Positions 8,382-52,852 of a stretch of 54,562 nucleotides of DNA are shown in pieces. The stretch is from a virus (lineage: Duplodnaviria > Heunggongvirae > Uroviricota > Caudoviricetes), in IMG/VR virus record IMGVR_UViG_2568526722_000002, positions 1 to 54,562 of that record, one strand, 5' to 3'. Each line of letters opens with the position of its first letter. Position 1 is the stretch's first letter. The notes beneath the pieces were generated by a model. That model ran no database searches and was not told the origin of the DNA. It saw only the letters and a program-made list of their open reading frames with translations. Position numbers and translations under genes: made by a program.

Positions 8382-8930
8382 TTATTTAGCAAGTCTGTAA
8401 TAAGTTGCTTTAGAGATTCCTAATTCTTCCTGAATCTGCAACCTCGTTTTACCTTGTGAAATAAGCGTCTGTACAGCCTCTGAAGAAGCTTTTACAGGCC
8501 TCCCCATATGTACCCCTTCAGCTTTAGCACGTTCAATACCAGCCTTTCTACGTTCACTGATAAGGTCTTTTTCAAGGTCAGCTAAACCAGCCATCATAGT
8601 AAGCATTGCTCTACCGATTGGTGTTAATAAGTCGAAACCTTCACGCAAAGAAACAACTCTCACACCTTTAGTCTGTAGTGCCTCCACGTTAGAGAGCACA
8701 TCAACGGTATTACGCCCTAAACGGTCAATAGCTACCACAACTAACGTATCGTCACACCTTACATAGTTCATCATGTCTCTAAAACCATCTCTGCTGGTGG
8801 CCTTTGTAGCTCCTGAGACAGCCTCATCAATAAACCATTTATCGACCTTGTGAACCTTCTCTATCTGTAGTTTCTGGTTGTCTACAGTCTGGTCTTGTGT
8901 TGATACCCTGCAATAACCAATCACCGCCAT
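8382..8930 (-). CDS. small serine recombinase (resolvase/invertase family)
   Basis: MAVIGYCRVSTQDQ... (catalytic Ser motif), ...VVVAIDRLGRN..., and a C-terminal HTH (LGISKATYYRLAK). 182 aa, with AAGGGGGA SD. Confidence 0.9.
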   Translation of the reverse strand: MAVIGYCRVSTQDQTVDNQKLQIEKVHKVDKWFIDEAVSGATKATSRDGFRDMMNYVRCDDTLVVVAIDRLGRNTVDVLSNVEALQTKGVRVVSLREGFDLLTPIGRAMLTMMAGLADLEKDLISERRKAGIERAKAEGVHMGRPVKASSEAVQTLISQGKTRLQIQEELGISKATYYRLAK

Positions 8931-9585: not shown

Positions 9586-9728
9586 ATCAGGATCAGTGAA
9601 AATGTCATTTTTGGCGTAATTACCCTTACTTTATGCATGGCCTTAACAAAGACATCATCTTTCCGTTGCAGATCTTCGCCCTTTCAAATAACGTACTTTA
9701 CAACTTTCCCGAACAAGGAGTTGTGCCC

Positions 9729-10025
9729 GTGTTGTATGTTATTTACGCTCAAGACAAAGCTGATAGCCTCGAAAAACGCCTTTCCGTTCGTCCGGCACAT
9801 TTAGCACGTTTACAGTTACTGCATGATGAAGGTCGTTTGTTGACAGCTGGTCCAATGCCAGCGGTAGACAGTAACGATCCAGGGGCTGCGGGATTTACTG
9901 GCTCAACCGTTATTGCTGAATTTGAATCGCTGGAAGCAGCTCAGGCCTGGGCCGATGCTGACCCGTACGTAGCGGCAGGAGTCTATGAACACGTTTCAGT
10001 GAAACCATTTAAGAAAGTGTTCTAA
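9729..10025 (+). CDS. yciI: YciI-family protein
   Basis: From a GTG start: [98 protein letters not shown]. This matches E. coli YciI (98 aa) from memory. Confidence 0.9.
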
Positions 10026-10143: not shown

Positions 10144-10692
10144 TCAGCTAGCTGGAAACTTTTTATACAGAGTTGAGAGCCCTACTCCATACGTTTTTGA
10201 TACGCTTTGTCGTGATTCACCGGTTGCCATCCGCTCCCCCATTTCCCGCCATTGCTCATCCGTGAACTTAGGCCTGCGACCACCAACTCGCCATTTTGCC
10301 CTGGCTACGGCCAGCCCTGCTAAGGTACGTTCGCTATTAAGATCAGATTCATATTGTGCTGCGGAAAGGATGTTACGAAAGTTATAGCGGCCGCTGGCTG
10401 TTTTGAGATCCACGCCATCGGTAATACTGCGGAAGTTGATACCCTTTTCCTGTAACTGCTGGAACATCAACAGCGCATGCAGAACGTTGCGGCCTATCCT
10501 GTCCAGCTTCCAGACCACCAGTTCATCCCCCGGCTGCATAGTGGCGATCAGCCGTTTTAGAACCGGCCGATTCGATTTCCTCCCGCTGGCATGCTCTTCA
10601 AAAATTTTCTCACAACCCGCTGACTTGAGCGCCGTTAGTTGCAATTCAGTGTCCTGGTGGTTTGTTGATACTCGGGCATAACCGTAAATCAT
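10144..10692 (-). CDS. DNA invertase (Pin/Gin/Hin/Cin family serine recombinase)
   Basis: MIYGYARVSTNHQDTELQ..., VVWKLDRIGRN, INFRSITDG, and a C-terminal ...GLSTLYKKFPAS that resembles Pin ...LSTLYKKHPA. Confidence 0.9.
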   Translation of the reverse strand: MIYGYARVSTNHQDTELQLTALKSAGCEKIFEEHASGRKSNRPVLKRLIATMQPGDELVVWKLDRIGRNVLHALLMFQQLQEKGINFRSITDGVDLKTASGRYNFRNILSAAQYESDLNSERTLAGLAVARAKWRVGGRRPKFTDEQWREMGERMATGESRQSVSKTYGVGLSTLYKKFPAS

Positions 10693-10777: not shown

Positions 10778-10896
10778 GCGGCAAAACGGGATGTGGGAAC
10801 AGGGGAAAATCAGATACCGGATATGGCTTTTTTTGCCAGTGGTGATGGATGGATGAAATTACCCAACGGTAAAATCCTGCAATATGGTCGAGGTGC
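10769..10896 (+). pseudogene. tail-fibre variable-tip fragment (both ends missing)
   Basis: ...[30 protein letters not shown] is typical of invertible tail-fibre C-terminal segments. The frame runs straight into yecD sequence at ~10897. Confidence 0.6.
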
Positions 10897-11120
10897 GGTT
10901 ACGCCGCCGAGGTATCGATACAATTGTGTTATGTGGGATCTCGACCAATATCGGTGTTGAATCCACCGCCCGCAATGCCTGGGAACTTGGCTTTAATCTG
11001 GTGATTGCCGAAGACGCCTGTAGTGCCGCCAGCGCCGAGCAACACAATAACAGCATTAATCATATCTACCCGCGCATCGCCCGTGTGCGTAGCGTGGAAG
11101 AGATCCTTCACGCGTTATGA
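10897..11120 (+). pseudogene. yecD: yecD (isochorismatase-family) 3' fragment
   Basis: [72 protein letters not shown] matches the C-terminus of E. coli YecD from memory. The N-terminal ~115 codons are absent. Confidence 0.75.
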
Positions 11121-11383: not shown

Positions 11384-11701
11384 CTAAACAACCGCGTTAT
11401 CTTGGCGAACATCGCAGATAGTAAACGTCACGACCCCGATGACAGTGACATCGTCCAGGGCCTCACCTTCAATCGCTTCGCCGTCTTCAGTAATCAGCGA
11501 ACGCCCTCTCAACGTGGCAAGTTCGGTCCCGCCGCCGTGCTGGATAAGAACCTGGCTTCCCTGCTTTGGCTTCAGGGAGATATCCAGCACAACATAACCG
11601 CCATCCCTTTCGAAAACGCGGGTGTTCGGCCCGACATTGCATATCGAGTTAACGGACAGTCGCTGCTCGACGTAGTCGGACGCCGGTGAAGGAAATCCCA
11701 T
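11384..11701 (-). CDS. UmuD'-like / S24 C-terminal-domain-like protein lacking the Ser-Lys dyad
   Basis: Starts MGFPSPASDYVEQRLSVN (compare UmuD' GFPSPAADYVEQRIDLN). The positions equivalent to SGDSM and the catalytic K read ERDGG and ELATL. Its ATG overlaps the upstream TAA (TAATG). Confidence 0.6.
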   Translation of the reverse strand: MGFPSPASDYVEQRLSVNSICNVGPNTRVFERDGGYVVLDISLKPKQGSQVLIQHGGGTELATLRGRSLITEDGEAIEGEALDDVTVIGVVTFTICDVRQDNAVV

Positions 11702-11940
11702 TACAGAACCCTCCCCATGTTGGCCATCATCCACAAACGGTTTTCGCTATGGTCGGTGGTTTTGTCGACAAAGTACGTCTGCTCTCTAGATATCCACGCA
11801 TTAGCCTCTGAGTCGGTAAAGTGCAGCCCACGCCGGCGCAGCGCTGACACAAAATCCTTTGTGTGCAGGTACTGGTAGCCTTTGGAGTTGCGCAATACCG
11901 ACTCGCGGAATGCCTGATTGATGTCTGACTGACGGTGCAT
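11701..11940 (-). CDS. 79-aa SOS-controlled protein (candidate antirepressor)
   Basis: MHRQSDINQAF..., with GGAGGCA SD. A LexA box lies 18 nt upstream of the start. Confidence 0.55.
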   Translation of the reverse strand: MHRQSDINQAFRESVLRNSKGYQYLHTKDFVSALRRRGLHFTDSEANAWISREQTYFVDKTTDHSENRLWMMANMGRVL

Positions 11941-11957
11941 GATCTGCCTCCGATTGA

Positions 11958-11977
11958 TACTGTTTTTATATACAGCA
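11958..11977. promoter_or_regulatory. LexA (SOS) box
   Basis: TACTGTTTTTATATACAGCA fits CTGT-N8-ACAG. Confidence 0.8.
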
Positions 11978-12075
11978 GTTTCATCAAAGAGTCGGATCAA
12001 TACTTGATGATGACTTTGTTTTATCTTCCGGTAGCCTCTTAAATTGCTTTTCACACAAATAATTGATATCAATAC

Positions 12076-12315
12076 ATGTTTTATCCAAGACACTCCGCCA
12101 CCAAAATGAGTACAAAAAGTGACACTCTTGTTCGCAGAATACTACGTAAATCCGATGGCCTGGGCCTCAAGCTCAGCAAGCCTGGGATCGACTACGAGGT
12201 CCTACAGTCACATGGATGGACTGAAATTTCAGATGGCACTAACACGATAATGGTGGAGCTTACTGATGGTGGTAAGTTGCAATTCTTCTTATGCGTCAAA
12301 CATCTGAGAGCATAG
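12076..12315 (+). CDS. hypothetical protein (weak call)
   Basis: 79-aa ORF divergent from the SOS-box operon. No clear SD. Confidence 0.3.
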   Translation: MFYPRHSATKMSTKSDTLVRRILRKSDGLGLKLSKPGIDYEVLQSHGWTEISDGTNTIMVELTDGGKLQFFLCVKHLRA

Positions 12316-12319
12316 ACCT

Positions 12320-13075
12320 TTATTGCATCGCCAGTAAAAATTGAGAGACAGATATTTTTTCAGCAGAAGTTAAAGAGCCGTTCATTAGCAATGTTGACTT
12401 AATATACTTGCTGGATGTTTCTACGTTGTTATCCACCTTTCTACCCATCAGTACGTTATTTGTGCCAGCAACCCTTGTCCCTGGCAGGGTTGATGTCGCT
12501 GACACCAGTGTGGAGGTCGCGGCGTTGAAAATATCGATTGCCACCACTCCCTGATTAACAGTGGCCACAAAAGCAAATAGACTTCCTGCAGCTATCGATG
12601 AAGGAAAATCAGCATAAGCATACACAGCAGACTGCCCGGTATTTTGAGCTACACAGAACAATCGCCCGGTGGTGTCAAAGCCTATAGAAAAGCCACTGGC
12701 CGTAGAGCCGCTTCCTGCATAATCCGCAATCATATGAGAGTTCAGTCCAGCTGCGGCATTCCTTTTTACCACTCCGCAAATGGTAACACTAAGTGTTGCT
12801 TTCTTCCTTGTATCCAGATAGTTACTAGGATTAACGGTAATAAACCCGCCAGTGTTATTCACTGTCCCGTTAATCACCGCCGGGTTATTTTGATCGTATG
12901 AGTCGTAAGTAATATCTGTTACCGGGTCCCCGAAATAGAACCCGGCATACGGTGTTGCCCCTGTGGTTGGCAGACCAATAAACCAGTTCGAAACATCAAA
13001 ATCAGAAAGAGTTTTCATCCCTGTTATCACAGGAAGAACTGCATCAATATAAATGGCGGAAATAGGCATTATCAA
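12320..13075 (-). CDS. LamG/concanavalin-like beta-sandwich protein, probable receptor-binding accessory
   Basis: 251 aa. The pattern ...FAFVATVNQGVVAIDIFN...LMGRKVDNN...LLMNGSLTSAEKISV resembles Laminin_G_3 domains. It has an ATGA overlap with the tailspike gene. Confidence 0.5.
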   Translation of the reverse strand: MIMPISAIYIDAVLPVITGMKTLSDFDVSNWFIGLPTTGATPYAGFYFGDPVTDITYDSYDQNNPAVINGTVNNTGGFITVNPSNYLDTRKKATLSVTICGVVKRNAAAGLNSHMIADYAGSGSTASGFSIGFDTTGRLFCVAQNTGQSAVYAYADFPSSIAAGSLFAFVATVNQGVVAIDIFNAATSTLVSATSTLPGTRVAGTNNVLMGRKVDNNVETSSKYIKSTLLMNGSLTSAEKISVSQFLLAMQ

Positions 13076-14916
13076 CCCCCGATAAAAAATTCTTTTTTAA
13101 TTGCTCTCGTCAGTACATACGCGCCAAGAGGACTTAGATGGAGGCCGTCAGCCCATGCCCCCCCAACACTGTTATAAACCTTTGGAAATAGTTGATACCC
13201 ACTAATAAAATTAACATTTTGCTCTACAGCTATTTCCCTCATTGTTTTATCGTACTCTGACAATGCTGGCGTACCTGTAGCGTTGCATTGCGCGGGTGAC
13301 ATTAGGCAGATGCAAATATCTGGCGTTGCACTACGGTATTTCGAGATAATCTCAACTATTCCTGACTTGTACTCAGCGACACCCTGGCTCAGTCTGAAGT
13401 CATTTGTCCCGAGAATAATAAACAGCAGATCAATGTCCAGATATTGCGCTACTGGCTGTATCCATAATGAAAAGTTGAAATAATCGCTCGCTATAGATGC
13501 TCCGTTGCCCATCCTTGATACGGTAAGCCCAGATGCAATAGAGTTATTTTTACCGTACATTCCAAGGATAGAAACAACACCGGTACCGGTACTTTGGATC
13601 GTCACCGTATGTGCGGTCGCGCTAAGTCCGCTGAAATCATATTTCTTGGCAGTTCCTGTATTCCCTCCCGTGATTGTTACGGGTGTATTACTGTCGATGG
13701 TGATAGTGAACGTTCCAGACCCGTCATAATAAAATACTGATAGATTTGTTACGGTCACGCCGGTCCAGACGAGAGAACCAACAGTGTTGTTGTTATAGTA
13801 CCCGTTTCCATCAGGCCCGCAGCCATATGGCGGAATGTTCGTGTTATTGCTCCCACCATCATATTTTGTAAAGTTGGTGGCTGTAACGGGTGATATCCCG
13901 GACATGACACCATCAGTTCTGTCTGAGCAACTGATCCACCCAGGGTCTTTGTATGTTCCACCAAGGATATTAATTAAAGACTGAGGAATGGTGTTTTTCT
14001 CTGTCCACGAATCGCCGGTAAAAGCAATGTTTAGGCTGGTAGACTGGCCAGCAAAAATACGGCTATTTTTGAAAAGGAACTTGTACTGATCTCCTTCGAT
14101 GAAGGAACGTACCGCATTAACTTCCCCACCAGACACCAGGTTTTTGACATATTCCTGCAATACCGGGCCAAGACCTGGAGCATCGAATAGCCCACCATTA
14201 AACCAAGCATATACGTTCCCTTGTTGGTCATATAAAAAAGGAAAGTAATAAGGTGAAAAGTCTCCTTGCGGTATAAACTTCTGGGCCCATTCGTTTGGAA
14301 TTTCAGAAACAACCTGTGTAACATTTGGCCCCAGTCCGGCCACATCAAATTTGCCGCCATCAAACCATGCTGGCACCATACTATTCCTGTCAAAGAAGGC
14401 CGGGAAATAACCAGGCCTGTATTCACCTGGGACGAGGCGCTCATTAATTTTATCATCAACGGTCTTGGTTGATGGCATTTGGCGCCCAGTAGGCTCCAGA
14501 GTCCCTCCGTTATTAATGACTTCAATTGCCAGCGAGCTATCATCAGGACTGCGATAATACGTGGCGCTTCCTGTCGGAATATTAGCAATATCTGCCTGTG
14601 CATCAGCAAGCGTCATGTATTGCTTGCTCAGAGGGATCAGGTTTTGGCGGGCTTCATCAATAACAGCGTCGGTAGCAGCTGCCATTTTTTTAGTAGCCCC
14701 AATTATCGTATCCCGGGCGTTACCAAAACGATCTATAAAAGTATCGCTTTCGCTGTTCAGGAAATCATCGTACGCCAGGGCGTTATCATTCAGATCCTTC
14801 ATGCTATTTGAAGGTCTTGGATTGCCGGTATTATATCTTTTGTCCATACCTGTTCCTGTCTTCATCTTTTCAATGAAGCAATTAAGATTGACGACCCGCC
14901 CCTTCAGGGCTAACAT
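13072..14916 (-). CDS. tailspike / tail fibre with C-terminal SGNH (GDSL) esterase domain
   Basis: SGNH blocks are present: FTGDSWTE, FIILGTNDF and ADGLHLSPLG. The N-terminus ...YNTGNPRPSNSMKDLNDNALAYDDFLNS is typical of fibre/spike adaptors. The true start may be the internal Met at 14865 or 14847. Confidence 0.75.
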   Translation of the reverse strand: MLALKGRVVNLNCFIEKMKTGTGMDKRYNTGNPRPSNSMKDLNDNALAYDDFLNSESDTFIDRFGNARDTIIGATKKMAAATDAVIDEARQNLIPLSKQYMTLADAQADIANIPTGSATYYRSPDDSSLAIEVINNGGTLEPTGRQMPSTKTVDDKINERLVPGEYRPGYFPAFFDRNSMVPAWFDGGKFDVAGLGPNVTQVVSEIPNEWAQKFIPQGDFSPYYFPFLYDQQGNVYAWFNGGLFDAPGLGPVLQEYVKNLVSGGEVNAVRSFIEGDQYKFLFKNSRIFAGQSTSLNIAFTGDSWTEKNTIPQSLINILGGTYKDPGWISCSDRTDGVMSGISPVTATNFTKYDGGSNNTNIPPYGCGPDGNGYYNNNTVGSLVWTGVTVTNLSVFYYDGSGTFTITIDSNTPVTITGGNTGTAKKYDFSGLSATAHTVTIQSTGTGVVSILGMYGKNNSIASGLTVSRMGNGASIASDYFNFSLWIQPVAQYLDIDLLFIILGTNDFRLSQGVAEYKSGIVEIISKYRSATPDICICLMSPAQCNATGTPALSEYDKTMREIAVEQNVNFISGYQLFPKVYNSVGGAWADGLHLSPLGAYVLTRAIKKEFFIGG

Positions 14917-14924
14917 CGCCTTAC

Positions 14925-15212
14925 GTGTTTAAACGGTTAAGTAAGAGAATGATTTTAATAAATAAATACACTCCTCCAACGCAGGAAGATTTAGCCAGAC
15001 TGAAATCCGCAATAAACTACTCCGGAAACCAAATGGCAGGGCTCGCAGGTGTAGCCAGCGATAGCCAATGGCGGAAATACACTGGCGGAGAGAGCCCCAG
15101 GGTAATGTCAAGACACATACTGTTTTATATTGCAGCTCAGCTTGTTCTGTCTGATGAGCAACTTAACAATGTAATAAATAAAATGCGCGATATTGGCGCG
15201 GAGATAAAATAA
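14925..15212 (+). CDS. XRE-type HTH protein
   Basis: ...LARLKSAINYSGNQMAGLAGVASDSQWRKYTGGESP.... Its stop overlaps the acyltransferase start (TAATG). The start is uncertain (GTG 14925 or ATG 14949). Confidence 0.55.
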   Translation: MFKRLSKRMILINKYTPPTQEDLARLKSAINYSGNQMAGLAGVASDSQWRKYTGGESPRVMSRHILFYIAAQLVLSDEQLNNVINKMRDIGAEIK

Positions 15213-16303
15213 TGCTTGGCCTAATAAGGTTTTTTTTGGCATCGTGCGTCATTGCTTTTCACTTAACGGCTCGCATACCTGCACTTGGCAACTTTGCAGT
15301 GAATTGCTTCTATGTTATCAGTGGTTTTTTAATAACATACATTTTGCATGAAACATACAAGTTCAACTTCTCTATGTTTTGGAAAAATAGAATACTGAGG
15401 TTATTCCCGGCATATATATTTTTTCTCGTCATGGGCTTTCTTATTATAAAATTAATTCCATCCGCAAAGGAATTCCACTCAAACTGGACAGGCAATTTCT
15501 TACCTGGAGATTTATTAGGAAACCTCTTAATCTTCCCCTGGGCTTTCCTTTCTGATAATGCTGTAGCAAATCCATTCGGTGCCTTTTCATCCATTTATCA
15601 CTTTGCTATTGATGGTAATAGATTCAGAATAGTCACATCATCATGGTCAGTGGGTGTTGAGATAACATGTTATTTTTTATTGTGGCTTTTCATAGCCCGA
15701 AATAAATTTACAGCCATTACGTCGATTCTGCTTTCACTGCTTTATCATGCTTACGTATATGTAGTACACCATTCTTTTGATATGGCGTATTTCCCATTCC
15801 TTGCTGCAACACTTCCTTTTAGCATGGGTTCTCTGGGTTATTTTGCCCATAGAAAGTTCAAAGCTATGTATCTTTCTCCACACAAAGCTTTTTTAATAAC
15901 ATTTATTTGCATCGGGATTTTTATTACCAATTGGTATTTATATACAATTAATGCATTAGGTCAGTACAACATAATACTTTACTACACCAATAATGTAATA
16001 GCATTGTTTACAACCCTGGTATTATTAAAAATAAAGACAAACATACATCTTGAGAAAATACTCAAGTGGTTTGGTGACCTGGCCTATCCAATTTTTCTTT
16101 GTCAATATTTTGGTGGATTTCTAGCATGGCTTGCTATTGGTGGTGAAAATCGTGGCTTATCCATCTTTTTATTAGGCTACCCAATATCAATTGCACTTGG
16201 GATCGTTTGTGTAATATTAATAGACAAGCCACTAATTAAAATTAGAGCAAAAATAAGGGCGGACGCTCAAAGCAAAAATAATCAGGAAAACTCTTCAAGG
16301 TAA
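15212..16303 (+). CDS. acyltransferase family 3 integral membrane protein (O-antigen O-acetyltransferase-like, Oac/OafA type)
   Basis: 363 aa and multi-pass hydrophobic. N-terminal ...FFLASCVIAFHL... carries the conserved His. The gene is very AT-rich relative to its flanks. Confidence 0.8.
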   Translation: MLGLIRFFLASCVIAFHLTARIPALGNFAVNCFYVISGFLITYILHETYKFNFSMFWKNRILRLFPAYIFFLVMGFLIIKLIPSAKEFHSNWTGNFLPGDLLGNLLIFPWAFLSDNAVANPFGAFSSIYHFAIDGNRFRIVTSSWSVGVEITCYFLLWLFIARNKFTAITSILLSLLYHAYVYVVHHSFDMAYFPFLAATLPFSMGSLGYFAHRKFKAMYLSPHKAFLITFICIGIFITNWYLYTINALGQYNIILYYTNNVIALFTTLVLLKIKTNIHLEKILKWFGDLAYPIFLCQYFGGFLAWLAIGGENRGLSIFLLGYPISIALGIVCVILIDKPLIKIRAKIRADAQSKNNQENSSR

Positions 16304-17067
16304 ACTAAACCATTCGCTCCTTTTCCTGATGAATAGTTACCATTCCCCCCGGCACCACCTGAGCCGGGGAAACCGCCATCATCGCCAGAACTACCGAAGT
16401 GGCCATTGCCACCCGTTGATGAAAATGCAGATCCTCCAGCCCCGCCAATAAAAGCATCAGAACCATAATACAGACCACCTTGAGATATTCCGCCAGTAAT
16501 ATTTAAAATGTTCCCGCCACTTCCGATACCTCCAGCAGGAACTGTAGCCCCGCCACCACTCCCTCCAGTAGCTGAGATTAAACTCCCGAACCTTGTATCA
16601 CCACCATTCCCACCTTTAGACGAGACACCAGCAGCAACAGCACTGCCACCAGTACCTATCGTCACAGATATAGTTTCGTTATCAGAAATATTAAATAACC
16701 CTTCCGAAAATCCACCAGCACAACCTCCAGATGCGCCCACACTAACTGGAGCATTCTGGCCACCTCCCCCCGCTCCCCAAACTTTCACCCGCACTCTTTT
16801 CGTCCCTTTAGTTGGAGTGTAAGTCCCTGACTTAGTAAAGGTGACAATATTAAGCAGGCGACCGCCACCAATCGCTTTAAGAACCTGTGAATCATCATCA
16901 GGATCAAGCTCAAGCCCCGCGCCCTCAACAACGTTTACCAGCTCACGCTGAAAGGTATTCATCATCTCAGCATTAATTATTGTCGGTGAAATACCATTAG
17001 CGACATTACCATTAGTGTATTCACCATTAGCATCAGCGGTGTCAGTTGTACTGCCAACTTTTCTCAT
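16282..17067 (-). CDS. tail fibre protein with glycine-rich C-terminal domain
   Basis: N-terminus ...TNGNVANGISPTIINAEMMNTFQRELVNVVEGAGLELDPDDDSQVLKAI, followed by GGxGG-rich repeats. Its 3' end overlaps the acyltransferase 3' end by 22 bp (convergent). Confidence 0.75.
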   Translation of the reverse strand: MRKVGSTTDTADANGEYTNGNVANGISPTIINAEMMNTFQRELVNVVEGAGLELDPDDDSQVLKAIGGGRLLNIVTFTKSGTYTPTKGTKRVRVKVWGAGGGGQNAPVSVGASGGCAGGFSEGLFNISDNETISVTIGTGGSAVAAGVSSKGGNGGDTRFGSLISATGGSGGGATVPAGGIGSGGNILNITGGISQGGLYYGSDAFIGGAGGSAFSSTGGNGHFGSSGDDGGFPGSGGAGGNGNYSSGKGANGLVYLEEFS

Positions 17068-44036: not shown

Positions 44037-44576
44037 TCATATAGCCCCCAGCATAATCTGCACCATTTCCATCAACGGACCGGTTAACCCAGGGTCAACG
44101 CGATACATCTCCACGATCCCCTCGCTCAACTCTTTCAGCTTCTGATGACGTGGCGCATCCATTGCGACAGCAATCTTCGCTTCGCTGGTTTCCTTCTCCA
44201 GCCTTGCCAGACGAGCCATTACGTTGTCTTCTGGTAGCAGACGATTGCGGTATTCAATCGGCAGGACAGCGAGGATTGCCGGCGTCAGCTGGCGGACGTT
44301 CTCGCGGTACCGTTCGCTGTTGAAATGGTTATCCAGGAAGCGGAACAGCTTCTGCCGGGCACGGCTGTGATCTGCCGGAAAGTCGATACCTTCGCCACCT
44401 ATCCGGTGCCACTCTTCAACGATCAGGGCCGTTACAACGTCCTGCCCGGCTACTGCTGACCAGGCGCGAACAGCATCACGGAGGGCACCACAACTGACGC
44501 CCGGTTTTGGTTGAGCGCGATTTATCAGCGCTGCTGAAATGAACCCGTTACTCTGTTGATACGTAAGTGATTGCAT
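44037..44576 (-). CDS. CII-position regulatory protein (YdaT-like)
   Basis: 179 aa, immediately downstream of the cro-like gene. The family call is tentative. Confidence 0.5.
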   Translation of the reverse strand: MQSLTYQQSNGFISAALINRAQPKPGVSCGALRDAVRAWSAVAGQDVVTALIVEEWHRIGGEGIDFPADHSRARQKLFRFLDNHFNSERYRENVRQLTPAILAVLPIEYRNRLLPEDNVMARLARLEKETSEAKIAVAMDAPRHQKLKELSEGIVEMYRVDPGLTGPLMEMVQIMLGAI

Positions 44577-44587
44577 AGTTACATTCC

Positions 44588-44806
44588 TTACTTTGGTAAA
44601 CCGTCACTTGGGTTTGGATAGAGATCAGGGCGCAGCTCGTGTGGAGTTACGCCGGTAGCCGCGTAGATTTGAAGGACCCGATCAGCAGGCACCACGCCCT
44701 GGTACCGGTTTTTCCAGCGGCTGACCGACATCGGCTTGATGCCCAGCATGGTTGCGAGATTTGTTGCAGTGCCAGCGGACTTAATGGCTTTCGTTAACCC
44801 GTTCAT
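44588..44806 (-). CDS. Cro-like HTH protein (YdaS/Cro family)
   Basis: Start at MNGLTKAIKSAGTATNLATMLGIKPMSVSRWK with GGAGA SD. Divergent from the repressor across the operators. Confidence 0.75.
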   Translation of the reverse strand: MNGLTKAIKSAGTATNLATMLGIKPMSVSRWKNRYQGVVPADRVLQIYAATGVTPHELRPDLYPNPSDGLPK

Positions 44807-44834
44807 CGTTGTCTCCGATTTGAATACAATCAAA

Positions 44835-44900
44835 TTAAGCCTGAGGCTTAATTTATTGTCAAGCCTGAGGCGAATTTTCAAGTTTAAGCAAAAGGCTTAT
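44835..44900. promoter_or_regulatory. right operator region: three 17-bp operators plus the PR/PRM region
   Basis: TTAAGCCTGAGGCTTAA (44835-44851, perfect palindrome), TCAAGCCTGAGGCGAAT (44859-44875) and TTAAGCAAAAGGCTTAT (44884-44900). Minus-strand TTGACA at 44862-44857. Confidence 0.75.
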
Positions 44901-44910
44901 TCTTCTAACC

Positions 44911-45297
44911 ATGAAAGAGAAAACCGTACTTAATCCGATACTTGTCGAACGCCTTTCAGAGCTGAACGGGCGCGGTATGACCAAATCCGATATGGCCAGG
45001 GTTGCTGGGGTAACCCCGCAGTCTGTGAACGGCTGGTTTAAAAAAGGCGTGATCAGCAAGAAATCAGCTCTCGCTGTCGCTGACGCAGCTGGCGTGTCTG
45101 TGCCTTGGTTACTCGGTGAGGATGTCGGCGAGAAGGACGGACTTAAGCCGGACGAACAGCGCCTGCTTGAGCTCTACCGCCAGCTGCCAGAAGAAGAGCA
45201 ACAGAACATGCTCCGCATCTTTTCGATACGTCTTAAGGAACTGGATGAGCTGTATGAGAAGTACATGAAGGGGCGGATTCGCTCGCAGGGGGACTGA
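44911..45297 (+). CDS. CI-like repressor, HTH_XRE, without an S24 autocleavage domain
   Basis: 128 aa. ...MTKSDMARVAGVTPQSVNGWFKKGVISKKSALAVADAAGVSVPWLL.... It has a short helical C-terminus and no Ala-Gly / Ser...Lys signature. Confidence 0.8.
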   Translation: MKEKTVLNPILVERLSELNGRGMTKSDMARVAGVTPQSVNGWFKKGVISKKSALAVADAAGVSVPWLLGEDVGEKDGLKPDEQRLLELYRQLPEEEQQNMLRIFSIRLKELDELYEKYMKGRIRSQGD

Positions 45298-45437
45298 ATC
45301 GCTTTAGGTTTGTCCTGAATTTTTAGTTCCCATGAGACAATGATGTCTTTACTGGGGGGTGATTCCGCCATTTATGTTAGATTGAAAAAACTATCAATTT
45401 AATTAATATTTATCACTACTACACGGGATGTTTTGCA

Positions 45438-46742
45438 ATGACAGCTGAGATTGTTGTAATAAATAATACTGGAATCGCCCTTGCTGCTGACTCTGCAGTC
45501 ACCACAGAGCATAATAGATTAGTAAAAATAAATAATAGTGCGGAAAAACTATTCGAACTATCTAAACACCATCCCGTGGGGATCATGATTTATAATAATG
45601 CGACACTGGGTGGCGCACCGTGGGAACTTATAATTAAATCCTATAGAAAACAATTGGGGAAAACTAGTTTCCCTACCATTAAAGAATATGTTAATGACTT
45701 TGTAAAATTCATCAATGGTAACTCAGACCTTATAACAAATGAAATGAGAGAGGCTTGCGTTATAAACCTTGTTGTTGATAACCTCAAAGGTTTGATGAGA
45801 TACATTAATGATAATAATGTAGTAAACTATTTAACAATGAACCCCGCCGTTGAACTCGACAATGTTATTTTTCAAAACATAGTTAAGCAAGCCTTTGATT
45901 TAGAGATAGGAATCTTAAGGAATAATCTCTTTTTCGAAGGGTTTGATACAGAAGAGTTTAATGATGCTTTAGCATATATACAAGATTTAATATCGCCATA
46001 CATTTCATCAATTATTGTTCTTGATAACTGTGAAAATATACAGCAAGAGCTTATGGAAAAAGTCATATTATATTCCACTTGTTTAATTTTCAAAGTCCAT
46101 GCTAGTCGTACATATTCAGGGATTGTTATAACAGGTTATGGAGAGGAAGAATATTACCCTTCCATTTGCACTCTTCATATCTACGGCATTTTTAAAAACA
46201 AATTGATGATCCATAATATTGATGATAAATCCCATAATGAGGTAACCAATATGGGGTTTGTTATACCATTTGCTCAAGAAGATGAAGTAGTAACTTTCAT
46301 TGATGGGTGCAACCCTAACATCATTAATTTTAACAGAACTCTTACAGAGGAAGTTTTTGATCGGCTTAATCATTATGTTTCTAGCAATATTTTCCCTGCA
46401 ATGAACAATGGAGTACTAGCCAATCACTTCTCCAGTGAAATTGAGGAACTCAAAAACGTACTTTTACAAGATCACGATACTAAACTTGAAAGCTATATTG
46501 TTAATAACCATACAAATAAAATGATATCGATGTTGCAATCACTTGGGAAGGCAGATCTTGCGTATATGGCCGAATCATTAGTGAACATCACTGCATTCAA
46601 AAGAAAAGTATCACATGATTATGAAACTGTCGGTGGGCCTGTTGATGTCGCTGTGATATCAAAAGTTGATGGATTTGTTTGGGTAAATCGTAAACACTAC
46701 TTCCCTAAAGAGCTAAACTCTAACTACTTTAATCGTCAATAA
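45438..46742 (+). CDS. proteasome-beta/HslV-like Ntn-hydrolase homologue with large insertions (434 aa)
   Basis: N-terminus M-TAEIVVINNTGIALAADSAVT...SAEKLFEL and C-terminus ETVGGPVDVAVISKVDGFVWV mirror 20S beta TTTVGI..AVIMATERRVT...GKKLFQI and [21 protein letters not shown]. The gene is AT-rich. Confidence 0.6.
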   Translation: MTAEIVVINNTGIALAADSAVTTEHNRLVKINNSAEKLFELSKHHPVGIMIYNNATLGGAPWELIIKSYRKQLGKTSFPTIKEYVNDFVKFINGNSDLITNEMREACVINLVVDNLKGLMRYINDNNVVNYLTMNPAVELDNVIFQNIVKQAFDLEIGILRNNLFFEGFDTEEFNDALAYIQDLISPYISSIIVLDNCENIQQELMEKVILYSTCLIFKVHASRTYSGIVITGYGEEEYYPSICTLHIYGIFKNKLMIHNIDDKSHNEVTNMGFVIPFAQEDEVVTFIDGCNPNIINFNRTLTEEVFDRLNHYVSSNIFPAMNNGVLANHFSSEIEELKNVLLQDHDTKLESYIVNNHTNKMISMLQSLGKADLAYMAESLVNITAFKRKVSHDYETVGGPVDVAVISKVDGFVWVNRKHYFPKELNSNYFNRQ

Positions 46743-46759
46743 CACATAAGGAGATATTA

Positions 46760-46864
46760 ATGTCTATAAAGCAAGCTCTCAATAACGCTTATAAAATCAT
46801 TGTAAATCAAAAATTTGGTAATAAAGAACAGCAGCACTCGCCGAAAGGATTTAACCAGCAGTAA
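46760..46864 (+). CDS. 34-aa micro-protein co-transcribed with the Ntn-hydrolase-like gene
   Basis: MSIKQALNNAYKIIVNQKFGNKEQQHSPKGFNQQ. An AAGGAG SD lies 7 nt upstream. It ends 3 nt before the terminator and is below the ORF-track cut-off. Confidence 0.45.
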   Translation: MSIKQALNNAYKIIVNQKFGNKEQQHSPKGFNQQ

Positions 46865-46866
46865 TG

Positions 46867-46896
46867 AAAAAACCCGGCCACAGCGCCGGGTTTTTT
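46867..46896 (+). terminator. intrinsic (bidirectional-looking) terminator
   Basis: AAAAAA CCCGGC cacagc GCCGGG TTTTTT. Confidence 0.8.
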
Positions 46897-46942
46897 ACAC
46901 CCTCACCCACCATCTCAGCCGCCAACACCCAGCCACGAAGTC

Positions 46943-46975
46943 CCCGATCTCGACCTTAGCGTCGGGATTTTTTTT
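46943..46975 (+). terminator. second terminator-like hairpin with T8
   Basis: CCCGA ..14 nt.. TCGGG a TTTTTTTT. Confidence 0.4.
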
Positions 46976-47000
46976 GCCTGCAATTCGGTGAACATCACGA

Positions 47001-47067
47001 TTAAGCCTGAAACTTACAATCACATTTCGCCTGGAGCTTGACATGATTTAAGTCTCAGGCTTAATAT
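47001..47067 (+). promoter_or_regulatory. left operators plus PL promoter
   Basis: TTAAGCCTGAAACTTAC (47001-47017) and TTAAGTCTCAGGCTTAA (47048-47064). Promoter is TTGACA (47038-47043)-18-TAATAT (47062-47067), with the operator in the spacer. Confidence 0.7.
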
Positions 47068-47318
47068 GCAATCACCAAGACGCACCACGAACCACCCAGG
47101 CATGGAGCCCACGAAGAAGCCGTCCGGGGCATACGAAGACCGGAATGAGGTGGTGAGATTAACGCGCAGTAGGTTTGAAACGTTCCGCCAGCCTGGCGAC
47201 AAGGGCAAAGCACAGAGTGAGCTTCGCGGTGGTGAATTGCAGAGTTAAAACGCTCAACCGTGAAGATCAGCGCCGCGGCACCACCAGCGAAGTTCACTCA
47301 GAAAAACTGGAGAACATC

Positions 47319-47525
47319 ATGGTTCATCAGCACTACGGTACACAGACAGTAAACCGCGGCGCAGTTCAGCCGGGGATGCTCGTCAAACACAAAGACTCAA
47401 CCTGGACGGCATCAGCTAACGCTCGCGGACGTTTGTATCTGCATCGCGGCGTAGAAATGACTTACACCAAGGATTTGCTGGTTGAAGTTTATCTGAACGG
47501 TCTGGGGCATGGACTCAGCCACTAG
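47319..47525 (+). CDS. hypothetical early-left protein (possibly longer, from TTG 47175)
   Basis: MVHQHYGTQTVNRG... with GGAGAA SD. The upstream in-frame extension is Arg/Lys-rich. Confidence 0.4.
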   Translation: MVHQHYGTQTVNRGAVQPGMLVKHKDSTWTASANARGRLYLHRGVEMTYTKDLLVEVYLNGLGHGLSH

Positions 47526-47536
47526 CGGAGGATGTC

Positions 47537-47698
47537 ATGTTAGACAAGAAATGCGGATATTGCGGCAAGCCGGTTAAAACGGAGGAAGTAATCAAGAGCA
47601 CCCTTCTCTATCGCAACGGCTCACAGCTGGCGCGCAAAGAAAAAGAGTATTGCTCCAAACGTTGCGCTTCGCACGACCAGATGGCTCACGAAGGCTAA
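47537..47698 (+). CDS. 53-aa zinc-ribbon protein
   Basis: [13 protein letters not shown]...[10 protein letters not shown] (CxxC...CxxxC), with GGAGGA SD. It is below the ORF-track cut-off. Confidence 0.5.
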
Positions 47699-47703
47699 CG
47701 GTG

Positions 47704-48207
47704 ATGAATATGCGAGAAAAATTATCACTGGCACGACTGAAGGAATTGCTCAGCTACTCGCCTGAAACAGGAGCATTCACATGGCTCAAAAATCGCGGAC
47801 GGATAACCGCAGGTGATTTTGCTGGAAATTTAGATACGCGCGGCTATGTACGAATCATCATCGATGGAAAGAAATACAGAGCACACCGCTTGGCCTGGCT
47901 TTATACACACGGAAAATGGCCTTAAGACCAGATTGACCATGTGAATGGAAATTGCTCTGACAACAGGCTGGAGAATCTCCGCGAGGCTACTTGCTCACAG
48001 AATAACTTCAATAAACCGCTTCAGAAAAATAATACGAGCGGAGTGAAAGGAGTTTATTGGCACAAAGGGAAACAACGCTGGACAGCCATGTGCCGAGTTA
48101 ATGGCAAAAGATTCACGGTAGGAACTTTTATTGAATTAGAAAAGGCTGCGGAAGCAATACGCGACTTCCGCAAAGCGAATCATGGTTCATTTGCCAGGAA
48201 TTCATAA
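47704..48207 (+). pseudogene. HNH_3 + AP2-type homing endonuclease interrupted by one in-frame TAA (47923-47925)
   Basis: ...[42 protein letters not shown]...GVKGVYWHKGKQRWTAMCRVNGKRFTVGTF. ORFs 47650-47925 and 47941-48207 are in the same frame. Confidence 0.75.
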
Positions 48208-48338
48208 CCCAGCGCAATGCTGAAAGGCTCCGGTGGTACCGACCAAAGTTACACCGGAAACAACATTAAAACCAAAGTTAACCCAATGGGCGCTATCAAT
48301 GGTCCGGGGATTCTAACACCCAAAAATGAGGATCTCAC

Positions 48339-51300
48339 ATGGAATTCTTTAATGTGGTTAAAGCCACTCAGAAATCCGGAAAGCAAGATGCAGTGGTCTG
48401 GTTCACTGCTAAAACCGAGGCTCGCGCCAATCTGATGCTGGATGTTGCGCTGGAAGATGCAGGTATCGAAACAGGTCGGGGTAAGGACTACGCCAAACCG
48501 ATTCGCACTGATTTCCCAGTTGTCGACGGCCTGCCGAAAGAAGGTGAAGTTGATTTTACCTGGTGTGATCGCTACGAGCTTCAGGACGATGGGCGCACCT
48601 GGCTGCCAAAAGCCGCTGGTGTGTCTACTGGTTCCGTTGACGCCCCCTACACACCTACTCCGACCGTAATCGTTGAAGATGCGACTGCGTCCGAAATTGT
48701 CCCGGTTGAAAACCGTACTCCAGCGGTCCGCTTTGCCGTCCATCTGATGAACGATAAATACCAAACCCACGTCACTAAAGAGCAGCAGTTGGCTGCCAGC
48801 GAAATGTCACTGGATGAAGGCAATACATATCTCCATAGCCTGCTTGTGGCAAGGAACGATGTGCCCGCGACCGCCAAACTCAGCCTGAATGCTGAGTGGA
48901 AAATGATTCGGGCGGTTAAGGACATTTTCACACCAGACGAAGAGCACGAACCAAGATTGATCGCTGCATTCATGTCTGACTGGGTGAACACCGATGCCGG
49001 TGACCGCAATCAACTGGTAGAAGACTGGCGCAGTGGTAAGTTGCAGTTGCTCAAAACTGAAACCAGCAACGCTGCTGACGTTACAACGGGTCAAGATCTC
49101 ACTGTTGAGGACGGTATCCAGACCGACGAGAACGGCCGGGCAGAAGGTGGCGTCGTTGATGGTGAAGTCGATACCGAAGAGCAATCCCAGCAGACACAGC
49201 AACCGAACCTGATCGTTGTTGCCACCCTGCCATTCCGCCAGCGCGTACTGGCTCAGTTCATCGGTGATGGTGAATATCTCTATCACATCGACGCAGGGCA
49301 GAAAAATGAGATTGTCCGCCTTGAGATGGACACCGATGACGCGTACGTCCAGAACCTGCTGCTGGCAGCTGAGAATGTGGAAGCATTCAAAAAAGCCATT
49401 GAGCACGATATTCATAAAGTCGTGAATGCCGTTAAGAAAGTCTTCCCTGTCGATGGAAAAATCCCTGAACTCGCAACCTTAATCCAGTTTTTGAAATTGT
49501 GGTTCGCTACAGATCACATCGACCGCGGTATCTTCGTTCGCGAATGGGCCGCCGGTAATCGCATCAGTAGTGTGCAGCGTACTGATTCCGGCACTAATGC
49601 CGACGGCGGTTACGTCACTGACCGTGGACCTGACGCACACCACACACTGGACACTCTCGATTTAGAGATTGCGTGTGCCCTTCTGCCTATGGACTTCAAC
49701 CACTTCGAGATCCCGGGCAGCATTCTTCGTCGCGCTAAAGAAATCGTGACCAAAAAAGAAGAACCATGGAAATCATGGAGCAACATCCTGCGCAATCAGC
49801 CAGGCGTTCTGGGTGTTAACCGCACGGCTATTTTTAACCTGGTACGTATCGCACCGGAAAATATTCATTTAACTCCTGTCGCTCACCTGGAATTTGTTAA
49901 CCAGACCATGACAGCCGCGTTCAATTCCGCGGTCGAGTTATTGCCGTTGCATGAGGCTGAACCCGCAGCACAGGAAATTCCCCAACCTGAAGGTAAGGAG
50001 TCTCCGCGCAAATCCTTCTGCACTCACGAAGAGAACCTGCAACGCGTGCGTGAAGAAGGAGCACGCCGCCGCGCAGAGGAAGCGGCAGCACAACCGCAGA
50101 AAGTCGAACAAGAACTGGTTAAAAATGTCGGCAACGGAATATTCGACGTTACGGCTTTGCTGCAGAACTCAGCAACTCATGGCACGAAAAAGGCTACGGA
50201 GACCACCAGCAATGTGCAGGTTCAAGAAACTGTCAGTGATGAAAAACAAGCTGGTGATGAAGTACAGCCAGGCGAAAGCAGTCTGGAGTCTGGTGAAGAG
50301 TCAGATACCAGCCAGAAGGACGATGTAAACCAGAATACGGATTCTGTCGCCAAAAATAGCGATTCTGTAAGCCAAACCGAACCAGTTGCAGCACAAACCG
50401 AGCCAGAAGCGCAATCTGACGAACCGGCTGTTGTTTATCCCGCTTATTTCGAGCCAGGCCGCTATGAAGGGCTGCCAAACGAGGTTTACCACGCCGCCAA
50501 CGGCATCAGCTCAACCCAGGTGAAAGATGCGCGCGTTTCGCTGATGTACTTCAATGCGCGCCACGTAGAGAAAACCATCGTCAAAGAGCGCTCAGCGGTG
50601 CTGGACATGGGCAACTTGGTGCATGCGCTGGCGTTGCAGCCTGAACTACTGGACGCAGAATTCAGCGTTGAACCGGTGATCCCTGAAGGCGCATTCACAA
50701 CGGCCGCGACCCTGCGCGCCTTTATCGATGAGCACAATGCCAGCCTGCCGGCGCTGCTGTCTGCCGACGACATCAAGGTGTTACTGGAAGAGTACAACGC
50801 CACCCTGCCGCCGCAGGTTCCGCTTGGCGCTAACCTGGAAGAAACGGCACAGAACTATATGGCGCTGCCAGCTGACTTCCAGCGTATTGATGGTGACCAG
50901 AAGCAGACGGCGACGGCAATGAAGGCATGCATTAAAGAGTACAACGCCACCCTGCCGCCGCCGGTTAAAACCAGCGGCAGCCGTGACGCGCTGCTGGAGC
51001 AGTTGGCAATCATCAACCCTGACCTTGTGGCTCAGGAAGCACAGAAACCGGCACCACTGAAAGTGTCCGGTACCAAAGCAGACATGATCCAGGCCGTGAA
51101 GGCAGTCAAACCAGATGCCGTATTTGCCGACGAACTGCTGGATGCCTGGCGCGATAACCCGGAAGGAAAAGTGCTGGTCACCCGCCAGCAGCTGAGCACC
51201 GCGCTGAATATTCAAAAAGCGCTTCTGGCACACCCGACCGCCGGCATGCTGCTGACCCACCCTAGCCGAGCCGTTGAGGTGAGCTACTTTGGTTTTGACG

Positions 51301-51728
51301 AGGAGACGGGCTTGGAAGTTCGTGTGCGCCCTGACCTTGAGATCGACCTGGATGGCGTGCGTATAGGTGCAGACCTGAAAACCATCAGCATGTGGAATGT
51401 TAAGCAGGAAAGCCTGCGCGCCAGGCTACACCGGGAAATTATTGAACGTGATTATCACCTGAGCGCGGCTATGTACTGCGAAACCGCAGCGCTGGATCAG
51501 TTCTTCTGGATTTTCGTCAACAAAGACGAGAACTACCACTGGATCGCCATCATCGAGGCATCCGCTGAACTACTGGAGCTGGGTATGCTCGAGTACCGCA
51601 AAGCGATGCGCAATATCGCAACCGGATTCGACACAGGTGAATGGCCAGCGCCAATCACTGCTGACTACACCGACGAACTGAACGACTTCGACCTGCGCCG
51701 CCTTGAAGCGCTGCGTACTCAGGCATAA
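48339..51728 (+). CDS. recE: exodeoxyribonuclease VIII (RecE-like), 1129 aa
   Basis: [24 protein letters not shown] and [36 protein letters not shown] parallel Rac RecE segments recalled from memory. The C-terminus is PD-(D/E)XK-like (...VRPDLEID...GADLKT...). Confidence 0.8.
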   Translation: [1129 protein letters not shown]

Positions 51729-51733
51729 GGGGA

Positions 51734-52852
51734 ATGATGATGGAAAACACGAATATCGTAACCGCTGAACAGCAGACTCCAAACACGATCTCAGCCAGCA
51801 ATGCCATTTTCAACGTGCAGGCTTTAACCCAGCTTCAGTCTGTCGCCGGGTTGATGGCACAGGCAGCCGTAACGGTGCCTGAGCACCTCCGCGGCAATCC
51901 GGCAGACTGCATGGCCATCATCATGCAGGCGATGCAGTGGGGTATGAACCCTTACGCCGTGGCGCAAAAGACGCACCTGGTTAACGGTGTCCTGGGATAC
52001 GAAGCGCAACTGGTTAATGCGGTGATCTCCAGCTCAAACGCCATCGTTGGCCGCTTTCACTATGAGTACGAGGGCGACTGGTCGAAATGTGCCAGCAGCC
52101 GCGAGATAACCGTTAAAAAGCCTGCGAAAGGTGGCGGGACGTACGACAAGAAAGAAATGGTACGCGGTTGGGAAAGTGCTGATGAACAAGGACTGTCGGT
52201 ACGGGTAGGTGCCGTTATTCGCGGTGAAAGTGATATCACCTGGGGAGAGCCTGTTTTCCTCTCCAGCGTAATCACACGTAATTCTCCACTTTGGGTATCA
52301 AACCCGAAACAGCAGATCGCTTATCTGGCACTCAAATACTGGGCGCGCCTGTATTGCCCTGCAGTTGTTCTTGGTGTGTACACCCCTGATGAGATTGAAC
52401 AGCGCACAGAAAAAGAGATCAACCCAACGCCGCAACGCGTTAGCCTGGCTGATATCTCAGGTGACACCGTCACAACCACGCAAAGCGCACAGGAATCGTC
52501 GGTAAATGTCGACTCTCTTGCCGATGATTTCCGCGAACGCATCGAATCTGCTCAGGACGTGGATAGCGCCAAATCGCTGCGTGCCGACATTGAAACGGCG
52601 AAAGCTACGCTGGGATCCGCACTATTCACCGAGCTGAAAAACAAAGCCGTAAAGCGTTATTACCTAGTGGATGCACGCAACAAGGTTGAGGAGGCTATTA
52701 AATCCCTGCCCCAGCCCGACGAGCCGCATGCAGCCGAACGGTTCGCTGAAGCCGAGCGCATGCTTGCATCTTCAAAGCGTCACTTAGGCGATGAACTGCA
52801 CGATCAATTCAGCATCACCCTGGCGGATATGAAACCGGAATACGTGGCCTGA
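51734..52852 (+). CDS. single-strand annealing protein (RecT/Red-beta superfamily)
   Basis: 372 aa directly after recE. ...DCMAIIMQAMQWGMNPYAVAQKTHLVNGVLGYEAQLV... fits the family pattern. Confidence 0.65.
   Translation: MMMENTNIVTAEQQTPNTISASNAIFNVQALTQLQSVAGLMAQAAVTVPEHLRGNPADCMAIIMQAMQWGMNPYAVAQKTHLVNGVLGYEAQLVNAVISSSNAIVGRFHYEYEGDWSKCASSREITVKKPAKGGGTYDKKEMVRGWESADEQGLSVRVGAVIRGESDITWGEPVFLSSVITRNSPLWVSNPKQQIAYLALKYWARLYCPAVVLGVYTPDEIEQRTEKEINPTPQRVSLADISGDTVTTTQSAQESSVNVDSLADDFRERIESAQDVDSAKSLRADIETAKATLGSALFTELKNKAVKRYYLVDARNKVEEAIKSLPQPDEPHAAERFAEAERMLASSKRHLGDELHDQFSITLADMKPEYVA

Follow-up and report, generated by a model that had tools for sequence, protein, structure and literature searches.

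We found that a two-gene cassette in the tail region of a temperate Escherichia coli phage is probably a lysogenic-conversion moron, in which a helix-turn-helix (HTH) protein controls an acyltransferase by the mechanism proposed below. The DNA analyzed (the window, 54,562 nt; IMG/VR virus record IMGVR_UViG_2568526722_000002) represents an E. coli prophage whose baseplate is Mu-like, and its cassette consists of a small gene for an XRE-type HTH protein and a gene for a family-3 acyltransferase (AT3). Both genes lie on the + strand, antisense to the tail genes on the - strand. The cassette displays the marks of a moron, namely, a conserved promoter, antisense orientation, a GC content of 0.35, and cargo that is swapped or absent in relatives. 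The identities that an earlier reading of the sequence alone (the original prediction) gave to the two genes agree with the Pfam, phrog, profile, and fold evidence, and lysogenic conversion is the natural reading of their role.

The listing of open reading frames (ORFs) also bears out the predicted layout. The small gene overlaps the AT3 gene through a TAATG junction, where the A at position 15212 is shared by the TAA stop of the former and the ATG of the latter. The pair is placed between the fiber gene and the tailspike gene, against the direction of the late tail genes, and its 3' end overlaps the glycine-rich (Gly-rich) fiber gene by 22 bp in convergent orientation. The predicted 5' end had to be revised. 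Rather than at a GTG at 14925, the HTH gene starts at the ATG at 14949: all homologs begin with M-R/I-L-I-N, and PGAP annotates a 264-nt gene in other genomes. Because the tailspike gene starts at 14847, the divergent gap (14848-14948) measures 101 bp, and the two start codons are not within ~10 bp of each other as had been supposed. In addition, the pair had been described as much more AT-rich than the tail genes around it, which is correct for one gene of the two: only the AT3 gene is markedly AT-rich (GC 0.352), not the HTH gene (0.428 vs. 0.453 for the tailspike gene). The GC content at third codon positions of the AT3 gene (0.33) equals that of the adjacent Gly-rich fiber gene (0.32), as compared with 0.50-0.60 in the baseplate genes, and the distal fiber module as a whole is AT-richer than the baseplate genes.

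Comparison of the AT3 gene with the most divergent E. coli allele (L127) revealed 24 synonymous and 5 non-synonymous differences, i.e., a ratio of non-synonymous to synonymous polymorphism (pN/pS) of 0.06; the gene is under purifying selection. Given this ratio, and since the HTH protein belongs to a family of 148 representatives (wider search, 50% clustering) with a high-confidence fold, both are real genes and not chance ORFs. The predicted 363-aa acyltransferase was recognized by Pfam PF01757 (E = 1.2e-15; 57.9 bits vs. a cutoff of 31; residues 4-336) and by phrog_3333, annotated as O-acetyltransferase. AT3 proteins share an R/K-x10-H motif in the first helix and an RxxR motif in the first cytoplasmic loop (PMC9558356). 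The window protein carries R6-x10-H17, F33-Y-x-I-S-G38, R60-x-x-R63-x-x-P66, and W145-S146...E150, and R6...H17 and R60-I-L-R63 are conserved across 31 relatives. For a family with about ten transmembrane helices, a crude Kyte-Doolittle scan returned 11 partly overlapping hydrophobic windows, which merge into fewer distinct segments. The protein had been assigned to the Oac/OafA type, and here the original prediction was half right: the protein is AT3-only, like Oac, and is not an AT3-SGNH fusion of the OafA type. We rejected an OafA/OafB-type fusion on the basis of the 363-aa length, the single PF01757 domain, and the lack of an SGNH match; an orthologue of Oac (OacA) was likewise rejected, there being no full-length similarity to Sf6 Oac. 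In a profile search of the genome contigs with AT3, the matches listed were mostly distant AT3 genes without HTH or phage genes.

The dedicated HTH regulator had been considered unusual for such a cassette; it is, in fact, a member of a conserved family (phrog_20491) that heads varied cargo in many phages. Homologs are 62-74% identical and start with MRLIN, and the HTH protein is 63-66% identical to p25 of the Serratia phage vB_SspM_BZS1 (BZS1). A single-sequence Pfam scan remained below thresholds (HTH_31, E = 0.24), and sub-threshold matches were found throughout the family (HTH_31 in 25/32 members, Xre-like-HTH in 20/32); NCBIfam gave no match for the protein. A profile of the diverse family searched against the PDB retrieved the HTH domain of AcrIF24 (8.6e-5), Aca3 (2.7e-4), the XRE protein Pli0006 (3op9; 5e-4), and Aca1 (4e-3). 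The AlphaFold2 model, with a mean predicted local distance difference test (pLDDT) score of 95.6, has five helices (residues 12-21, 26-33, 38-45, 55-66, and 69-82) arranged in a lambda-repressor-like fold; it replaced, after the wider search, a first model built from a shallow alignment (pLDDT 59). The top Foldseek matches of the model were AcrIF24, Aca10, Aca1, HigA2, and controller proteins (C-proteins) of restriction-modification (R-M) systems, all of which are HTH regulators; the probability was 1.00 for AcrIF24 and Aca10, with E-values that are weak given the small domain. By profile and modeled fold, the HTH protein resembles Aca and R-M controller proteins, and by analogy with them it most likely acts at the promoter of its own cassette, binding there to adjust how strongly the genes are expressed.

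A sigma-70-type promoter-like site is located in the divergent gap. It has homologs that are conserved across genera, namely, the TTGACA-N17-TATTAT / TACAAT promoters preceding the related cassettes of Serratia BZS1, L086, K. oxytoca L108, and L154/L158. On the 3' side of the -10 element, CTTACGTG is common to the window and BZS1 (L003), and an imperfect palindrome of 22 bp lies between the -10 element and the HTH start codon. Rfam yielded no match in the window region or in the related leaders. Dam/GATC sites, which occur upstream of oafB/gtr and serve phase variation there, were not seen when the 101-bp gap was read by eye; no search was run for them. Relatives have a fuller 5' part (L003:5680-6020, L086:5390-5740, and L108:4650-5003) than the window has at 14848-14948. 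Their promoter consists of TTGACA, a spacer with an inverted repeat (ATAGC...GCTAT), and TATTAT, and in most of them it is followed by a leader, a gene for a 57/58-aa membrane peptide, and, immediately ahead of the HTH gene, a GC-rich hairpin, AGCCCCGAAAGGGGC, with T5. By its appearance, this hairpin is an intra-operon terminator or attenuator. Neither the peptide gene nor the hairpin is present in the window. A C-terminal membrane helix has been predicted for BZS1 p26 (PMC7556043).

We propose the following mechanism. The cassette occupies a conserved slot between the proximal Gly-rich fiber gene and the distal tailspike module, a few kilobases from the phage attachment site (attP). In the lysogen, the sigma-70 promoter in the gap would fire, and the first product, the 87-aa HTH protein, would bind its own promoter region and set the level, as Aca and C-proteins do. 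The same transcript would yield, via the TAATG overlap, a multi-pass AT3 membrane enzyme. [quoted passage not shown] During lytic growth, late transcription presumably crosses the cassette antisense to reach the tailspike gene. Recombination swaps the C-terminal part of the tailspike irrespective of the cassette. Phage-borne O-acetylation alters serotype, vaccine epitopes, and phage susceptibility, and for this reason the uncharacterized AT3 protein, which 32 of 5,426 complete E. coli genomes encode (that of the commensal reference strain HS among them), is a sensible subject for lipopolysaccharide (LPS) or capsule chemistry.

Several results weigh against a controlled conversion gene of this kind. 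The promoter and terminator scan detected no more promoter sites than shuffled sequences contain, and neither downstream of the AT3 gene nor on the late strand did it reveal a convincing terminator. The enzyme is only distantly related to any characterized AT3 protein: its match to Sf6 Oac spans 44 residues around FxISG...RxxR (16/44 identities, 36%; E = 0.002), and sequence searches of NCBIfam and the PDB, including a search of the PDB with the AT3 profile, gave no match for it. Autoregulation by the HTH protein is argued from analogy. Furthermore, the same AT3 protein occurs in E. coli strains with different tailspike classes, and probably different surface glycans, so that it may be inactive in some hosts or may act on a conserved glycan. 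Finally, esterase-type tailspikes make up about two thirds (15/23) of the tailspike types beside the cassette, which may reflect a loose functional link.

The last point touches the central idea of the original prediction, i.e., that AT3 and the neighboring tailspike form a matched pair in which AT3 writes an acetyl group that the esterase tailspike recognizes and removes, as a single adsorption/exclusion system. As that prediction held, the neighboring tailspike is of the SGNH esterase type: its C-terminal SGNH/GDSL domain matches PF13472 (E = 5e-10; 40.5 bits vs. a cutoff of 32.9) and retains the catalytic motifs GDS (residue 278, ~14016), GTND, and DGLH (residue 567, ~13149); PDB and NCBIfam sequence searches gave no tailspike match. 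Moreover, AT3 stands beside SASA-type esterase tailspikes in BZS1, E. coli HS, 23CRST046, 20KM2222, and S. fonticola, the slot nearly always holds an acetyltransferase, and the proportion of esterase-like types beside the cassette given above also speaks for such a pair.

Co-inheritance and co-variation of the two modules were, however, not what we found. The cassette region is present at >=97.6% nucleotide identity (at least) in the 32 E. coli genomes, strain HS included, and similarity among them breaks inside the N-terminal region of the tailspike, whose N-terminal anchor (~14458-14847) is conserved and whose C-terminal part is swappable. The neighboring tailspike was annotated as a sialate O-acetylesterase in 16 of these genomes, SGNH/GDSL in 8, TolB-like in 3, CotH-like in 1, and hypothetical in 4. 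Two of the four hypothetical proteins (W21 and LR881940) are of the same right-handed beta-helix type (by Pfam for W21), and the remaining pair are cryptic esterases of a SASA-like kind, in which GQS...GE/N...H motifs are conserved and which BLAST connects with the proteins of HS and BZS1. The nucleotide sequence of the window AT3 gene is 100% identical beside the beta-helix tailspike of LR881940 and beside a TolB-type tailspike (IMG/VR contig L120), which means that a single allele accompanies SGNH, beta-helix, and TolB-type tailspikes. Conversely, one esterase tailspike type (87-96% identical over 793 aa; L154, L155, L158, and L161) stands beside three unrelated acetyltransferases, namely, the BZS1-type AT3, a second AT3 that BLAST does not relate to it, and an ORF for a hexapeptide-repeat acetyltransferase.

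We surveyed 56 IMG/VR loci whose tailspikes have this N-terminal anchor in common, along with the genome-derived loci, and obtained 35 C-terminal types of tailspike. Five of the 35 (the SGNH type of the window, two SASA-like types, the TolB type, and one further type) occurred both with and without the cassette; the type of the window, for instance, is also found in strains 361 and 123636, which have no cassette. Close AT3 relatives (51-65% identity) end the prophage directly after the last fiber gene, with no tailspike beyond. Esterase-like tailspikes accounted for 15 of 23 types beside the cassette and 11 of 19 types without it (Fisher p = 0.75), or 14/23 vs. 7/19 when only firm esterase calls were counted (p = 0.21); these are counts by type, not phylogenetically corrected, and they derive partly from our own hidden Markov model (HMM) of SASA-like proteins. 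Tailspike classes had been re-scored with Pfam, since our own narrow SGNH HMM missed other SGNH types. For comparison, acetyltransferases have been reported in 5-30% of prophages per K-locus (PMC13123978).

Collectively, the AT3 cassette and the tailspike modules assort freely, and AT3 is physically linked to the Gly-rich fiber, not to the tailspike. The adjacency of AT3 and an SGNH tailspike is to be expected from the conserved cassette slot and the high baseline of esterase tailspikes, and the SGNH tailspike of the window would reflect the commonness of esterase receptor-binding domains in temperate phages and not a dedicated pairing. We therefore regard a matched write/erase pair as unlikely, although in a given phage the two proteins may interact functionally. 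More generally, finding an acetylase next to an esterase tailspike is no ground for assuming a dedicated pair: the modules assort freely, and esterase tailspikes are common in any case. We also considered the insertion of the cassette into a once-continuous fiber operon, based on the uninterrupted order fiber-65 aa-tailspike in strain 361, where the phage is of another type; a cassette-free version within the phage lineage of the window was not found, and the event may have run in either direction.

Since linkage points to the fiber, AT3 might instead be tied to the co-inherited Gly-rich fiber, modifying the receptor of that fiber tip and excluding phages with the same fiber, with the tailspike as an independent, swappable first-contact enzyme. 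The fiber and the cassette were never separated in the 32/32 E. coli genomes carrying them. In L086, which has another baseplate type, the fiber tip (75% identical over 200 aa), AT3 (65%), the HTH protein (71%), and the 22-bp overlap are all kept, and in Klebsiella the fiber tip and AT3 have both diverged. If AT3 is matched to any virion protein, the fiber tip is thus the better candidate. However, physical linkage alone could give the same pattern, and AT3 relatives also abut other fiber types (Gp53-like_C and Caudo_TAP); we judge this explanation to be improbable, and to the same degree as the tailspike pairing.

The least probable explanation, in our estimate, is that AT3 acylates a target other than a receptor (peptidoglycan, enterobacterial common antigen, or periplasmic glucans) and benefits the host through lysozyme or immune evasion rather than through control of adsorption. 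AT3 proteins have many substrates (PMC9558356), the occurrence of one protein beside differing tailspike classes fits a conserved substrate, and a relative in Lonsdalea is chromosomal and lies outside any phage. Nevertheless, most close relatives are located at the tail-fiber ends of prophages, another cargo of the same HTH protein is LPS-directed (WaaZ_KDO_III), and the phage AT3-only enzymes characterized so far act on O-antigens (PMC9558356). Indeed, such enzymes (Oac and that of PhiV10) convert serotype and block superinfection (PMC9558356), in keeping with the conversion role that we favor for the cassette.

The conversion reading also gains from the location of the cassette in the phage genome. 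A prophage adjoining yecD in E. coli JNQH497 matches the region at 99.9% identity; that prophage is integrated between yecD and yecE and carries int and xis at its opposite end, and the integrase gene of the window (53369-54562) is likewise at the far end. Once the phage is circular, its two ends, that of the tailspike and that of the integrase, meet at attP, which places the cassette ~3.7 kb from att. Its position had been thought odd on the grounds that seroconversion genes adjoin int/att. It is an ordinary place for conversion genes and no exception, because att is close, as in BZS1 and Sf6. A megablast of the region against 50,697 phage records gave no match, and the context was taken from E. 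coli genomes and protein-level searches.

A broader idea is that the HTH gene and the conserved promoter, with the 57-aa peptide gene and the terminator-like hairpin in most relatives, constitute a portable expression chassis. Such a chassis would deliver diverse enzymes that modify envelope glycans, antisense within or beside the late (tail or lysis) clusters of temperate phages from Enterobacterales to Burkholderia and Bordetella; in the BZS1-like lineage, acetyl-writing cargo would be kept beside acetyl-esterase receptor-binding proteins, since acetylation by the lysogen would tune the adsorption of esterase-dependent phages. The cargo seen is varied. In the slot, relatives carry at least 7 AT3 subfamilies and a hexapeptide acetyltransferase (an ORF in L155). 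The HTH gene also heads a WaaZ-like Kdo transferase (WaaZ_KDO_III) in Citrobacter (L103-L107), a stand-alone 250-aa SGNH/GDSL protein in Burkholderia phages (L005, phiE131), and a DUF4214/DUF1796 protein in L124, where the E. coli phage backbone is otherwise identical. In K. oxytoca lambdoid phages (L108), it is without cargo and lies antisense between Q and the holin gene. In Serratia prophages, it was always found beside an acetyltransferase (Bujak et al. 2020, PMC7556043). Taken as a whole, this proposal is speculative and rather doubtful, less so than the rival explanations above. The HTH protein could explain how conversion genes are expressed at safe levels, as Aca proteins do for anti-CRISPR genes, and in our opinion this uncharacterized Aca-like controller and its varied glycan-modifying cargo are most worth following.

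The features of the region are compiled in Table 1.

Table 1. Cassette of the window and the tail genes around it (window positions)
Feature	Position	Strand	Basis or remark
Whole cassette (promoter, leader, HTH gene, AT3 gene)	14888-16303	+	As delimited in this analysis
Sigma-70-type promoter-like site, TTGACG-N17-TAACAT	14888-14916	+	Promoter scan and homology; putative function
Imperfect palindrome CTTACGTGTTTAAACGGTTAAG, candidate operator	14920-14941		13-nt arms, 77% complementary; putative role
87-aa XRE/Aca-like HTH protein, probable cassette controller	14949-15212	+	phrog_20491, E = 1e-29
363-aa AT3-only membrane acyltransferase	15212-16303	+	PF01757; own GGAG 9 nt upstream
Convergent 3'-end overlap of AT3 and Gly-rich fiber genes, 22 bp	16282-16303	both	ORF listing; same 22-bp overlap in L086
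591-aa tailspike	13072-14847	-	Start at 14847 per PGAP; ORF reaches 14916
251-aa tailspike partner	12320-13075	-	phrog_34046; same position as BZS1 p28
261-aa glycine-rich tail fiber protein	16282-17067	-	PF21722, phrog_863
Mu-type baseplate genes gp48, gp47, gp46, gp45, gp44	On the fiber side of the cassette	-	ORF listing and family scans

Further observations concern the tailspike module (11384-13075, - strand), which comprises the ~250-aa partner and two small ORFs of 79 aa and 105 aa per PGAP; the 105-aa ORF is labeled S24/S26-like by PGAP in strain 361. The same module recurs at argW/intS and at yecD in E. coli prophages whose types are unrelated. A relative of the partner in L099 matched a ConA-like domain (Laminin_G_3) below the Pfam cutoff, and NCBIfam gave no match for the partner or the Gly-rich fiber protein. 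In its SGNH domain (13072-14100, - strand), the tailspike shares 78% identity with a protein of Klebsiella phage VLCpiM5b and 54-62% with tail fibers of Klebsiella phages Sin4, K59PH2, and KYP. This similarity suggests that the SGNH esterase domain has been exchanged between prophages of E. coli and phages of Klebsiella, some of the latter being annotated against specific capsule types. In L148 (6998-9112), a tailspike with the same N-terminal anchor has a zinc carboxypeptidase (Peptidase_M14, E = 6e-27) in place of the glycan-active domain. In the IMG/VR contig L152 (3694-6837), a truncated tailspike N-terminus is flanked by two different AT3 genes, and behind it comes another tailspike start, which is broken; the arrangement looks like a recombination scar in the slot.

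The phage backbone is a mosaic, the tail region being 99.9% identical to JNQH497 and the early region different: at 44037-52852, the window carries RecE/RecT-type recombination genes and a YdaT-like gene, unlike JNQH497 (L175), which has lambda exo/bet/gam. In the window, only the last 78 codons of yecD are present (10884-11120), its 5' end being truncated, and next to them lie genes for a Pin-like recombinase (10144-10692), a YciI-family protein (9633-10025), and another recombinase (8382-8930). Strain 23CRST046 has the same yecD junction as the window, and a related prophage in strain 20KM2222 adjoins yciI and tonB. The yecD and yciI junctions suggest a rearrangement between two prophage-occupied loci.

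The closest precedent is BZS1, the arrangement of which was called surprising by its authors (Bujak et al. 2020, PMC7556043). In that phage, HHpred found a SASA esterase domain in p27, both p27 and p28 were detected in virions by mass spectrometry, and the authors speculated that one O-antigen is the target of both the deacetylase of the tail and the acetylase of the lysogen (PMC7556043). The gene order is that of the window: Mu-like gp43-48, fiber p23, the antisense genes p26-p25(HTH)-p24(AT3), tailspike p27, p28, attP, and int. The annotated attP and int come immediately behind the gene of the tailspike partner, matching the window. The HTH protein is 66% identical between the two, gp48 is 83% identical, and gp47 is 65% identical. 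In contrast, the BZS1 AT3 belongs to another subfamily (~20-30% identity), its tailspike esterase is SASA-type where that of the window is GDSL-type, and BZS1 has the extra 57-aa membrane-peptide gene and the hairpin upstream of the HTH gene, both missing from the window. The same architecture is found in Klebsiella and S. fonticola prophages and in many IMG/VR contigs. Thus, the cassette architecture and the acetylase/deacetylase idea have already been published for BZS1, and the supposedly unusual features are the norm in this phage lineage.

Among characterized acyltransferases, Oac of Shigella phage Sf6, the model for serotype-converting O-antigen acetylases, is likewise AT3-only, with R-x10-H, FxISG, and RxxR motifs, and its gene, which runs antisense to the late genes, has the tailspike gene on one side and att/int on the other; unlike the cassette of the window, oac has no HTH gene, and the Sf6 tailspike is an endorhamnosidase, not an esterase. 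Salmonella OafA/OafB, which are AT3-SGNH fusion O-antigen acetyltransferases, share the AT3 domain and the R/K-x10-H motif, whereas the window protein is of the stand-alone type, without a fused SGNH domain and probably without an 11th helix. With regard to the tailspike, phage G7C gp63.1 and the SGNH tail fibers of Klebsiella prophages (PMC13123978) also have a C-terminal SGNH domain (GDS...GxND...DxxH) on a modular tailspike; the likeness to G7C gp63.1 is taken from the literature, and esterase activity is predicted for the window protein.

For the HTH protein, the closest solved relatives by profile (8.6e-5 to 4e-3) and fold are Aca and C-proteins. Aca1, Aca3, Aca10, the AcrIF24 HTH domain, and the C-proteins are, like it, small XRE-type proteins that share an operon with an accessory gene, and in the case of the C-proteins the regulator gene comes first and the effector gene overlaps it, as in the window. 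Sequence identity to these proteins is 17-28% only, and the role of autoregulator would carry over by analogy; the cassette of the window differs from these systems in its cargo, which here is a glycan-modifying enzyme.

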